Source: Nitrospirota bacterium
Lineage (GTDB): Bacteria > Nitrospirota > UBA9217
Direction: 5' to 3'
DNA: 64,000 nt
Assembly: GCA_963790205.1 (NCBI GenBank)
Contig: CAWBNQ010000008.1
Location: 192,001 to 256,000, forward strand
The translations under genes were made by a program, and so were the position numbers. Positions 15,475 through 20,565 of the stretch are shown here, in pieces (the first letter of the stretch is position 1; each line of letters starts with the position of its first letter). The notes beneath the pieces were generated by a model. The model was not told where the DNA came from and made no database searches. It was given only the letters and a program-made list of their open reading frames with translations.

Positions 15475-16842
15475 TTATTCCGCTGCCAGCCCGTACTTCT
15501 TGAGTTTCCTCCAAAGCGAGACGCGGTCGATGCCTAGGATCTGGGCGGCGAGGGTCTTGTTGCCGCCGACTTCGTTCAGCACCCATTTGATATAGGACTC
15601 CTCCTGCTCGTCAAGCGACGGGATCTTGCCTTCCTTTTTTCTGAAGGTCTTGATGCTCAGCTCCCGTAAATCCTCGGGTAGATGGGCGAGCTCGACTGTG
15701 CCGCCGGTGGCGAGCGCCACGCCGCGCTCCATGATGTTCTCGAGCTCCCGCACGTTGCCGGGGAAATCGTAGTTCACCAGCAGGCCGAGCACTTCCGGAG
15801 AGATCTCATTGACGTTCTTTTTCATGATCACGGCGTACTTTTTCAGGAAATAGTACGAGAGCAGAGGAACGTCGTCCTTGCGTTCCGACAGGGGGGGGAT
15901 GCGCAGAGACACCACGTTCAGCCTGAAGTAAAGGTCCTGCCGGAAGGCGCCCTCCTTGATCGTGTCCTGGATGTTCCGGTTCGTGGCGGCGACGAGCCGT
16001 ACGTCGACTTTGATCGCCTCGGTGCCGCCCACCCGCATCATCTCCCGTTCCTGGATCACCCGCAGGAGCTTTACCTGCATGGACGGCGGCATCTCGGTGA
16101 TTTCATCGAGGAATAGGGTCCCGCCGCTGGCCATCTCGATGAGGCCTTTCTTCATCGTATTTGCACCGGTGAACGCGCCCCTTTCATGGCCGAAAAGCTC
16201 GTTCGAAAGAAGCTCCTCGGTGAAGGCGCCGCAGTTGATTGCGGAGAAGGGCCCCTCCACGCGTTTGCTGCTGATGTGGATGTACCGTGCGAAGAGCTCC
16301 TTGCCGGCGCCGCTCTCGCCGGTGATGAGCACGTTGCAGTCCGTGGGTGCTATCTGCCGCGCGGTTTCGAGGAGGCGCCGCATGTTCGGGTCCTGGGTGA
16401 TGATCTTGACCCGCCCCTGGTAGTGTTCGAGGTGCTCCCGGAGCTGCTGGTTCTCCTTCTTGAGCAAGACCTTGGTAACGGCCTCCTTCACGACCTTCCG
16501 CACCTCGTCGAGCTTGAAGGGTTTGGCGATATAGTAGAACGCGCCGTGCTTCATGGCCTCGACGCCGGATTCGAGCGTGGCGAAGCCGGTGATCATGACC
16601 ACTTCCGTGTCGGGGTAGAGCTCGCGGCAGCGCCGGAGGATCTCCATGCCGTCGACCTTCTCCATGCGAAGGTCGGTGAGCACAACGTCGAACGGCTGCT
16701 CTTCGAGGAGCTTGAGCGCATTCGCCCCGCTCTGGGTGCCGAAGACGTCGTAGCCTTCCTTTTTCATGACGTGCTCGAGGTTCCTGAGCGCCACGCGCTC
16801 GTCGTCGATGATGAGAAGTTTCGTGCTGTTGTTCATTATCAT
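15475..16842 (-). CDS. Sigma54-dependent response regulator (NtrC family)
   Basis: REC domain, [20 protein letters not shown]-terminal Fis-type HTH. Confidence 0.95.
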
Positions 16843-16915
16843 TTCACTCCAGGTTTTTCAAAAAAGGATTTCTAGTTTAGAATTTATGGCTTATAGCTGA
16901 AGCAGTGACCTTAAA

Positions 16916-18470
16916 CTACAAACTGATTTTATTCACCGGCAGCCGTATCAAGAACGTCGTGCCTTTCCCCGGCTCGCTGTCCACAGCGATGCAGCCGTCG
17001 TGCTCCTCGATGATCTCGTGCACGATGTAAAGGCCGAGGCCCGAGCCCTTGCCCACGTCCTTGGTCGTGAAAAAGGGGTCGAAGATCTTCGACAGGGCGT
17101 CAGCGGAAATGCCCGGGCCCGTGTCACGCACTTGGATATCGATGGTGTCCTCTTCGAGCGTGCATTTAGCGCGATATTTAAGATAATTGTAGATGCCCGT
17201 GTCGTCTCCGGCCTGGTCAAGGGCGCTGTGCCGATCTGGCGGTCACCAGGACCGCGCCCCCGTTCTCGGCTACGGCATCGAGGGCGTTCTTGATCAGGTT
17301 CAGAAAGGCCTGCTGGATGCGCTGCTTGTCCGCTATGATCGTGAGGTCATCGGGGATGTCCATAGAGACCGTCGTGTTTGCGGGCATCTGGCCTTTTACG
17401 AACCGGATCGTCTCCTCGAATAGGGACCTGACCGGCAAATCCTGCTTCTTAAAGTCCTTGTCGCGCGAGAACTCCAGGAGCGAGCGGACGATGTTCCTCG
17501 CCCGGTCGGTCTGGTCGTTTATCTGGGCCAGCATCTCCGTCACAAAGTCCGGGTTCACGCACAGGCGGCCGGAGGCCGGATTTTCCCGCGACTCTTTCAG
17601 CTCTTCCAGAAGGATCTGGTTGGACGACGAGATGTTCGACAGCGGATTGTTGAGTTCGTGCGCCACGCCCGAAAGGAGCGTGCCGAGGGAGGCAAGCTTC
17701 TCGGACTGGACCAGGTGGCGCTGCCTTAGTTCCAGTTCGCGCAGCATTTTATTGAAGGCGTTGGTCAAGGACGCGATCTCCCGGTCCCGGGAGTCGATCT
17801 CTATCTTCTCGAACCGTCCGTCCGCGATCACTTCCATGTTCTTCTCAATGAGCTTGAGGGGCTTCACGACCATCCGGGACAGGACCTGGCCGATGGCGAT
17901 GACGGCGATAGAAAGCAGGATGATCGAAAAAATGAGGGTCTGCTGGGAGGTGGTCAACAGCGCTTGGACGCTGGTGCGCTCGGTCTTCGATATTTCCTCC
18001 GCGATCGTGATGATGTCCTTACCCGTGACGCGGATCCCGCTTTCGAGCATGGTCTTACGCGCTTTGTGCCCGACGCGTTTTTTTCTTGTGCCGGGCGCGG
18101 TCAGTGCGGCGTACTGTTCCATGAGCCCATGATAGACCGCGAGCCGGTCCCGGAGGGACTCTACCTGCGCCGTCGGGGCGAGAGCGGCAAAACCCTTGAG
18201 GTTACTTTCGAGGAGCTCACGGGCCTTGCTCACGTAGCGGGAATTTTCCCGGTAGTCCGACTGCTTCTCGTAAAGGAAATAGTTCTTTTCAAACCGCCTG
18301 ATCTCGAGGGTGGTGTCGAAGAACTCGGAAATGGCCTCGCCGAAGATGATTTTCCGTTCGATGAACCGCAGTTCGAGGAACGTGAACAGGGTGAGTCCGA
18401 TGATGATGACCACGATGGCATAGTAGCCAAAGGTGATCTTCTGTCTGATGCTTGGTTTGTAGTTGAACAT
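16916..18470 (-). CDS. Membrane sensor histidine kinase (periplasmic helical sensor, HAMP, HisKA, HATPase); frameshift near 17234
   Basis: [43 protein letters not shown] and GSGLGL lie in the downstream frame after one extra base. Confidence 0.88.
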
Positions 18471-18567
18471 GATTAAATCCAAACAAGTTTGAGGTCTCGA
18501 ATTTGAAGTCTCAAGTTTGAAGTCTCAAGTTTAAAACCGAGACTTGAGACTATAACCTGCTCCTGCT

Positions 18568-20565
18568 TCATACAAGCACCGCATCGACCACTTCGGTGAT
18601 GGAGTCCGCGAGCCGGATCTCGATGCCCTTCTTCATATCGTCGGACAGCTCTTCCACGTCGTCGCGGTTTCGCGCCGGTACGATGACCGTCTTGACCTTC
18701 GCGCGCCTGGCCGCAAGGACCTTTTCCTGGATGGCGCCGACGGGGAGAATCCTTCCCGTGAGAGTGATCTCTCCGGTCGTGGCCACCTCGCGCCGCGCCG
18801 GCCTTCTGGTGAGTAGCGACACAAGGGCTATCAATATGGTAATGCCAGCAGACGGGCCGTCTTTCTGGATCGCCCCGGAAGGCACGTGGATATGAATGTC
18901 GTGGTGCTCGAAAAAGTCCTCGGGTATGCCGAAGGCGCCGGCATTGCTCCTGACATAGCTCAAGGCCGCCTGCGCCGACTCCCGCATCACGTCGCCGAGA
19001 GAGCCGGTGATAATAAGTTCCTTCGTGCCCTTCATCTTCGCCGCCTCGACAAAGATAATGTCGCCGTCGCTTTCGGTGCGGACGAGGCCCGTGGCAACGC
19101 CGATCCGGTCCTTTCCCTCGATGACCTCGAAATGGTATTTTTTCCGTCCCAGGTAGCGCTCGATCTCGTCGGGGGTGATTTTCACGGACAGGGTCCCGTC
19201 CTGTCGTTCGACGGATTCCTTGGCGATCTTGCGGCAGACCGAGGCGATCTTTCGCTCGAGGTTCCGGATGCCCGCCTCGCGCGTGTATTCCTGGATGATC
19301 TTCATCACGGCCTCGTTGTTGAAAGCGACCTGCCCGGCGGAAAGGCCCTTTTCGTCTATCTGCTTGGGACAGAGAAACCGAGAGGCGATGTGCGTCTTCT
19401 CTTCCTGCGTGTAGCCCGTGAACTCGATCACCTCCATGCGGTCCCGGAGCGGGGCGGGGACGGCGTCGAGCATGTTCGCGGTCAGTATGAACATGATGCT
19501 CGAAAGGTCGAAGGGGATATCGAGGTAATGGTCCGTGAAGGTGCGGTTTTGCTCGGGGTCGAGCACCTCGAGCAGCGCCGACCCCGGGTCGCCCTTGAAG
19601 TCGCGGCCAATCTTATCGAGCTCGTCGAGCATGATGACAGGGTTGGCCGATTCTATCCGGCGGAGCTCTTCGATCACCCTGCCGGGCTTGGCCCCCACGT
19701 ACGTGCGCCGGTGGCCGCGAATGTCAGCCTCGTCCTTCAACCCGCCGAGGGCGATGCGTGTGAATTTTCTGCCGAGGGCGCGCGCGATGGATTTGCCGAG
19801 CGAGGTCTTGCCCGTTCCCGGGGGGCCTGCAAAACAGAGCACGGACCCTTTTGTGTTTGCCCGGAGCGTCCTTTTCTCCAGCGCCCGCTTTACAACGTCG
19901 CGCACTTCGTCGAGTTTGAACGGTTTGGCGATGTAGTGAAAGGCACCCTTCTGCACAGCCTCGATCGCGGAAGGGACCGTGGCGAAGCCGGTCACCATGA
20001 TGACCCGGGTCTCCGGATGGCGTATCCGGACGCGGTCGAGCAGTTCCATCCCGTCGATACTGCCCATCCTGAGGTCGGCCAGCACGACATCGAACTCCGA
20101 CTTCTCCAGCTCCCGGAGCGCTGTCTCGCCGTCGGCAGCGGTCACCACGCCATAATCCTCTTTCATGAGCACGTGAGCGAGGTTCTTACGCACGATCGCT
20201 TCGTCATCAACCACCAGCAGGCGCGCCTTCCTGTTCTTCATGAGCACCTTGACCGCGAGGTGCTCCATGATCCTCTCCTTGATCGTGTTCAAGCCGTAAT
20301 GGTTTTCGTTCAGGATCCGTTCAGCGCGGGCAATGTCGAGATTATCTTCGGTTTTTTTGTTCCAGGGCAGGGAGATGAAGTAGTCGATGTAGGTAAGGCC
20401 GATGGTATATTCCGCGGACGAGGGACTGATCTTGGCCAGAACCTCGAGTTCCTGGTCCGCGATCTTTGTCACGGCAGGGGGCATGTTCGCCAGGGATATC
20501 TTCCGGCGCAGTTCTCCGATGATGAATTCCTGATGGTTGTCTTCCGTCGTCTTGAAGAATTTCAC
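18568..20565 (-). CDS. lon: Lon protease lacking the N-terminal domain, with an inserted receiver (REC) domain
   Basis: LPW...HYGL..IKERI, then REC (aa ~113-231), [21 protein letters not shown] catalytic Ser, EKVLAA catalytic Lys. Confidence 0.92.

Follow-up and report, generated by a model that had tools for sequence, protein, structure and literature searches.

The receiver-fused Lon protease considered here is an addition to a kinase and activator system that also occurs without it, and a 60-residue peptide encoded beside it is a candidate for its substrate. The window, a stretch of 64,000 nucleotides from a Nitrospirota contig (CAWBNQ010000008.1, assembly GCA_963790205.1), encodes this Lon, a sensor histidine kinase and an NtrC-type sigma54 activator in one operon, divergent from a second operon that opens with the peptide gene. 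The locus is a further copy of the 'three-component system' DVU3303-DVU3304-DVU3305 of Desulfovibrio vulgaris Hildenborough, reported in 2011 with its target operon DVU3302-3298 (PMC3333781). That report gives the DVU3305 binding site, proposes phosphorylation-dependent protease activity and places orthologues in Thermodesulfovibrio; the regulon is repeated in PMC4641369. A preliminary description of the window had proposed that one kinase phosphorylates both activator and protease, which repeats the 2011 proposal. New here are the add-on status of the protease and the naming of a candidate substrate, which exists in natural versions with and without an arginine-rich tail.

A protease added to a two-component system

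Receiver-Lons were collected by a search with the junction region, which found them in 41 of 201 genomes of the window's own phylum and in 38 of 301 genomes of the phylum of G204. The loci examined numbered 91 including the window; 88 carry an intact receiver-Lon, three with a split or cut gene were dropped, and one duplicate had been omitted beforehand. One homologue search gave mostly canonical Lons (63 of 80), which served as outgroup and controls. The nearest named homologues of the receiver-Lon carry the label Nitrospirota.

As the preliminary description would predict, the receiver-Lon is usually found in the same company: among the 67 loci with 5 kilobases (kb) of flank on each side, 57 have the activator, 57 the kinase, 44 the transporter TauE and 35 the universal stress protein Usp. 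Ten of these full-flank loci have no nearby activator; nine of their genomes were searched, and eight have one elsewhere at 58% identity or more. Counted from the activator, the coupling is one-way. It occurs in 67 of the 201 own-phylum genomes, including 39 of the 41 with a receiver-Lon, and in 48 of the 301 genomes of the other phylum, including 35 of 38, but 28 of the 67 activator-bearing genomes of the own-phylum sample have no receiver-Lon match. Lon matches are present in 40 of 41 activator-only genomes, all of them beginning at query residue 230 or later and at no more than 60% identity, that is, canonical-like (split Lon pieces in G198 were left out of this classification). Many Lon-less loci retain the kinase, activator, TauE, Usp, small peptide and the receiver signature described below. 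The receiver-Lon is therefore an add-on, since the kinase/activator/TauE operon also occurs without it. The wiring originally drawn from the kinase to both activator and Lon thus keeps its genomic signs of a shared kinase, but has to be amended in that the activator often occurs in genomes with no receiver-Lon match. A second type of Lon-less locus (L256-L273) combines Usp, a sigma54 activator, a small peptide with the FAEAGE motif discussed below and a distant TauE, and is often found in receiver-Lon genomes.

The protease itself is a variant of LonA. In Pfam, the 665-residue protein matches Response_reg at residues 117-225 (E 7.8e-29), AAA at 243-383, Lon_lid at 405-455 and Lon_C at 462-664, with no match to the N-terminal substrate-binding family, and it scores 723.6 bits with the LonA model TIGR00763 (cut-off 608). 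The best solved Lon aligns with it in two pieces, 18-113 and 236-665; these abut in the solved chain, so that the receiver stands as a clean insertion between them. At E<=1e-60 there are 34 solved sequences, and in no case does the best-aligned stretch cover the receiver. Compared with LonA (TIGR00763; solved chains such as 3m6a, 7fd4 and 6u5z), the window Lon has the three-helix region, AAA+ module, pore loop, arginine finger and Ser-Lys dyad in common, but it is without the N-domain and has about 126 residues inserted before Walker A. It begins about where the engineered N-domain-less construct AAAP begins (PMC8087443). The receiver residues D120/D121, D164, T192 and K214 and the catalytic residues K253 (Walker A), E315 (Walker B), S572 and K615 are all present. 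The domain search and alignments hence uphold the architecture first described, namely a Lon lacking its usual N-terminal domain, with a complete receiver ahead of Walker A that keeps its acidic pair, phospho-acceptor aspartate, threonine and lysine, and with intact Walker motifs and Ser-Lys dyad.

These features extend to the family. D120, D164, T/S192 and K214 are each found in 100% of the 88 receiver-Lons; K253, E315, N364, R376, R434, S572 and K615 are invariant in 88/88, and Y289 is kept in 99%. Counted stop to stop, a median of 30 residues precedes position 16, compared with 274 in canonical Lons. With its AAA+ module and Ser-Lys protease domain, the receiver-Lon belongs with LonA as an N-domain-less variant. 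A FastTree phylogeny with the receiver columns removed splits 87 receiver-Lons from 54 canonical Lons at support 100, and the Desulfovibrionaceae copies (L032, L038, L039) fall on the receiver-Lon side of that branch. Two residues set the receiver-Lons apart and are possible docking sites: F4, within an N-terminal MxFF motif (window 20554-20565, Lon residues 1-4), in 86/87, and E300 (window 19666-19668) in 82/87, against 7% acidic in canonical Lons.

An AlphaFold2 model built from 141 aligned sequences (mean predicted local distance difference test score 86, predicted template modelling score 0.75) superseded an earlier one from a shallow alignment, for which the latter score was 0.34. In the model, helix 93-111 enters a receiver of normal fold, with five strands and five helices, and the last receiver helix (218-236) stops five residues short of the Walker A strand, with a short loop of lower confidence between them. 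Measured across the insertion, 85 receiver-Lons have 139 residues and three have 140, as against 13-14 in 53 of 56 canonical Lons; each linker flanking the receiver has one length in 86/87, though its sequence varies. Such fixed length despite varying sequence suggests geometric coupling, with the receiver acting mechanically on the ATPase.

Sister receivers and a probable shared kinase

The genome has 75 receiver hits, and the one that best matches the Lon receiver, apart from itself, is the activator two genes downstream (55.9%, 137 bits), as had been noticed from the sequence; the next-best receiver reaches 44.1% and 105 bits. In an IQ-TREE phylogeny of 20 Lon receivers, 20 cognate activator receivers and the 30 closest other receivers, the Lon and cognate receivers make up one side of a branch supported at 98/94, and a FastTree phylogeny of 265 rows recovers the same set at 0.79, so that the two are sisters. 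Recent gene conversion within individual genomes was considered and is not favoured, as each family clusters separately, albeit weakly (66/86 and 54/77). A signature of N128/H131/K135/A195/T196/R222 is held at five to six of the six sites by 84/88 Lon receivers, 68/70 cognates and 0/75 other receivers of the genome, the sites having been picked from the same alignment in which they were then counted. These six sites probably face the kinase.

The control region points the same way. The DVU3305 palindrome lies within 400 base pairs (bp) upstream of Lon in 64/87 loci, compared with 1/87 coding controls and 0.7 expected from shuffles; in the window alone, the box is at chance level (two found, 1.9 expected). 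The sigma54-type site before the divergent operon is a single match where 0.19 were expected, and similar sites occur on the divergent strand in 23/87 loci and on the Lon strand in none. Scans for sigma70 promoters and terminators added nothing. Taken together, the sister receivers, the signature, the co-occurrence, and the activator box and sigma54-type promoter of the divergent operon give strong genomic support to a shared kinase, and on these sequence grounds a single kinase probably phosphorylates the receivers of both Lon and activator. In the window, the activator box stands 201 bp from the Lon start, whereas in close relatives the distance is about 40 bp; within the added spacer (20610-20720) is an element of 31-38 bp with five other copies in the genome. 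Between Lon and kinase, at 18484-18535, lie three copies at 14-nucleotide spacing, a stretch that is single-copy in the genome.

The kinase gene lies beside those of Lon and activator, as described, but a frameshift that breaks its reading frame in the window, between the N-box and the G1 box, had been overlooked. Contigs from a pair of sequencing runs in a single study, at depths of 35 and 11, are near-identical to the window and may be the source of the window itself; they have one base fewer at 17238, and the contig of a relative from an RNA run of another study has one base fewer at 17237. The frameshift is therefore most likely an assembly error, and real pseudogenisation is rejected on the same evidence. 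Split kinases also occur at loci L104 and L112, and a second Lon gene of the assembly (G000 C3:738337-740779) has a frameshift near 739970 that splits it.

The 60-residue peptide and the role of the protease

The gene behind the sigma54-type site, which the preliminary description had passed over, encodes the 60-residue peptide. Its FAEAGE motif was found in 63/87 receiver-Lon loci and 0/63 canonical-Lon loci. No family in Pfam or NCBIfam accounts for 52 such peptides, the best E values being 0.0027 in Pfam (TPR_4, 7/52) and 0.012 in NCBIfam. The FAEAGE helix is an unnamed module that also occurs repeated in tandem, as the final element of lone receivers and within Usp-like proteins encoded next to transporters (P0124, P0126, P0129, P0148, P0151 and P0153; G000 C3:601421-601948 and C3:428899-429498).

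What distinguishes the peptides is the C-terminal tail, which was called Arg-rich when at least three of the last 16 residues are arginine, taking the most Arg-rich small peptide of each locus. An Arg-rich tail is present in 59/61 loci with a receiver-Lon, the misses being the window and L143, and in 0/17 Lon-less loci. Pairs from the same genus differ in this way (L117/L118 versus L181/L197), and on a tree of the activator with 73 rows there are ten changes of Lon state, with the tail following in 72 rows; the L111 row of that tree contains a wrong paralogue. Under a rule then fixed beforehand, six of six genomes outside the earlier searches in which the peptide has its full tail also have a receiver-Lon, in some cases cut or split. 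A metagenome test stated in advance yielded 80 loci, 69 with a small peptide. A Lon gene is visible at 30 of these (the receiver seen in 22), and every one of the 30 is Arg-rich; here 28 loci were too short to classify, the query was biased towards Arg tails, and many of the rows are related to one another. A further 19 Arg-poor peptides had been chosen for missing that part of the model which represents the tail, which makes their low arginine count partly circular; the telling point is that a Lon appears at none of their 18 loci. The C-termini of kinase, Usp-like protein, TauE and Usp show no comparable split. Two simpler accounts were discarded: the peptide does not exist only with Lon, since 17/39 Lon-less loci have it and only the tail differs, and base composition does not explain the tail, the ranges of guanine-plus-cytosine content overlapping (0.32-0.70 versus 0.31-0.59). 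Prediction of a Lon-peptide complex scored 0.00 in two runs in which the controls did not fold either, and is not used as evidence.

These observations make it likely that the peptide is a dedicated partner of the receiver-Lon, and its Arg-rich tail, found almost only where that protease is present, marks it as a likely target. Small stress-linked proteins that engage Lon by C-terminal sequence (LarA, HspQ and SmiA; PMC10665427) offer a model, from which the peptide differs in having no family match, in having a partner Lon without an N-domain and in existing, Arg-poor, without Lon. In the explanation that we favour, the sensor kinase would phosphorylate the sister receivers of activator and Lon, the activator would switch on the divergent peptide/Usp/TauE operon, and phosphorylated Lon would degrade the peptide via its tail, so that a two-component system able to work without Lon would acquire a feedback arm based on proteolysis. 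LonA engineered to lack the N-domain still has ATPase and peptidase activity, and it can degrade casein, which is disordered, but not folded protein that has been damaged (PMC8087443). Lacking the N-domain, the receiver-Lon would thus be a narrow protease for disordered tails and not a general quality-control enzyme, and this behaviour, together with the action of small Lon regulators through C-terminal sequences (PMC10665427), makes a kinase-gated narrow protease with a peptide partner the likeliest reading by analogy. Control of the protease by phosphorylation is probable; that the peptide is degraded and that phosphorylation is the activating signal comes close to an even chance without reaching it, and the full explanation is likewise put forward tentatively, as slightly less than evenly balanced.

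Several observations weigh against it. Restricted to supported independent contrasts, the association between tail and protease amounts to 4/4 (p=0.125), and the cut-offs of this test and of the 59/61 versus 0/17 count were chosen after viewing the data. The window's own peptide has two arginines in its last 16 residues, below the cut-off; genome G156, which is 88% complete, encodes two peptides with Arg tails, and no receiver-Lon was found in it; and no small peptide was detected in 20 of the 67 full-flank Lon loci. Metagenome loci with no Lon include Arg-rich peptides as well, in two of 11 with 2.5 kb of upstream sequence (nine Arg-poor) and in 7/21 at 0.7 kb. The activator C-terminus shifts too, if more weakly (27/72 versus 3/39). 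In D. vulgaris, the common fitness patterns of DVU3303-05 mutants (cofitness >0.9) speak for the explanation but may be polar, since DVU3303 opens the operon and shares 4 nucleotides with DVU3304; in chlorate, loss of DVU3303-05 helps and that of DVU3299 hurts, opposite signs at odds with the simple switching on of a protective transporter (PMC10102598). One might speculate that the chlorate signs reflect operon products damping the system and Lon relieving the damping, subject to the same caveat of polarity.

The evidence from conservation, tail, receiver tree and linkers is blind to the sign of phosphorylation. Unphosphorylated Lon could instead clear the peptide, and phosphorylation would then switch Lon off so that the induced peptide accumulates; stabilising a product while inducing it would be a coherent design, and N-domain-less LonA is active without any effector (PMC8087443). 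We regard this as unlikely, given that Lon mutants resemble those of kinase and activator, as would follow from all three acting in the on state, provided that the effect is not polar (PMC10102598). The peptide might also be an activator or adaptor of the HspQ/LarA/SmiA kind, docking by its tail to reset the system, with the activator, the kinase or the FAEAGE Usp-like protein as main substrate. Small Lon regulators do work via C-terminal sequences, and a FAEAGE helix that recurs in the Usp-like neighbour and at the ends of lone receivers could bring a partner along; the LarA site, however, is placed, as likely, in the Lon N-domain (PMC10665427), which receiver-Lons lack, and the other operon proteins show no clear Lon-linked C-terminal change, which leaves this role just as unlikely.

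Stress induction of DVU3298-3305 (PMC3333781) would suit the 2011 reading of a general stress protease activated by phosphorylation, in which the tail of the peptide is no more than a passenger of the Lon gene, and the two genes, at most 1 kb apart in 51/84 loci, can indeed move together. The tail nevertheless stays Arg-rich across Lons of only 48-60% identity while its sequence drifts, and even where the peptide lies kilobases from Lon (L217, L218), and loss of the N-domain removes damaged-protein recognition in LonA (PMC8087443), all of which makes this quite improbable. Slightly less probable still is a receiver that serves mainly as a phosphate sink or as a tether to the kinase, with protease activity independent of D164: the Lon receiver copies the activator's surface signature, as a competitor would, and the system runs without a receiver-Lon in 41 genomes, but a sink would have no need to be fused within the AAA+ module or to have linkers of constant length.

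The locus and its relation to the Desulfovibrio system

The features of the window are collected in Table 1. In the window as in D. vulgaris, a single operon holds the Lon-type regulator, the kinase and the sigma54 regulator in that order. The DVU3305 palindrome is also common to both, with one mismatch in the window, and the window Lon is likened to DVU3303 by gene order, divergent operon and palindrome. The divergent operons also agree in order, with membrane protein and UspA-type genes in both and with DVU3302-3298 at 180, 543, 294, 1071 and 783 nucleotides compared with 183, 504, 252, 1083 and 849 in the window (PMC10102598). The window differs in having a TatA-like gene and a Kup potassium transporter after Usp, where DVU3305 binds the kdp operon instead; the potassium link may therefore recur at the window's Kup.

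Table 1. Features of the receiver-Lon locus, with positions in the window
Feature	Position	Strand	Basis and remarks
NtrC-type sigma54 activator, DVU3305-like: REC, AAA with GAFTGA loop, helix-turn-helix	15475..16842	(-)	Pfam
Membrane sensor histidine kinase, DVU3304-like: HAMP, HisKA, HATPase_c	16916..18470	(-)	Pfam; frameshifted near 17238
Receiver-fused N-domain-less LonA protease, 665 residues, DVU3303-like	18568..20565	(-)	Pfam, TIGR00763, solved-Lon alignment, AlphaFold2
Ser-Lys dyad	18721..18852	(-)	S572 codon 18850-18852; K615 codon 18721-18723
Inserted receiver domain, residues 113-231	19873..20229	(-)	PF00072; phospho-acceptor D164 codon 20074-20076
Activator box, one mismatch to DVU3305 palindrome GTTGC-N5-GCAAC	20752..20766		Motif from PMC3333781
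Sigma54-type -24/-12 promoter-like site before divergent operon	20930..20944	(+)	Motif scan
60-residue FAEAGE-helix peptide, basic Arg-containing tail	20978..21160	(+)	Candidate substrate or partner; same place and size as DVU3302 (180 nucleotides)
167-residue Usp-like protein, N-terminal FAEAGE helix	21208..21711	(+)	DVU3301-like by place and size
83-residue small hydrophobic protein	21867..22118	(+)	DVU3300-like by place and size
TauE/SafE-family anion transporter, DVU3299-like	22120..23202	(+)	PF01925
Tandem-Usp universal stress protein, DVU3298-like	23189..24037	(+)	PF00582, two stretches
TatA-like small protein and Kup potassium transporter	24175..26371	(+)	PF02416, PF02705; possible distal genes of divergent operon

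TatA-like genes lie on both sides of the system, at 15222-15413(-) and 24175-24363(+), among nine TatA-like hits in the genome, and Kup (24557-26371(+)) stands beside the system in 5/87 other loci. Ordinary neighbours nearby encode a Tex protein (12472-14724(+)), a Bax-inhibitor-like protein (26739-27515(+)) and a cytochrome with doubled CXXCH (27894-28742(+)).

The accessible parts of the DVU3303-3305 literature propose neither a substrate nor add-on status for the protease. A literature search in which subscription journals were largely outside the scope returned no biochemical study of the system and nothing on DVU3302 beyond lists; that no biochemical follow-up since 2011 appears in the literature searched is due in part to the want of a named substrate. 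With a candidate that has natural tail variants, the question becomes testable with three purified proteins.

Phosphorylation is otherwise known to control AAA+ proteases through separate adaptors such as RssB or CpdR. If the explanation favoured here is true, it is the AAA+ protease itself on which phosphorylation would act, by way of a domain set within the ATPase. The receiver-Lon would then be a narrow, signal-gated protease with its own tag, and what these genomes gain and lose may, with a confidence that stops short of even, be a plug-in proteolysis module: a kinase-gated Lon and its dedicated 60-residue substrate, whose Arg-rich degron would come and go together with the protease.

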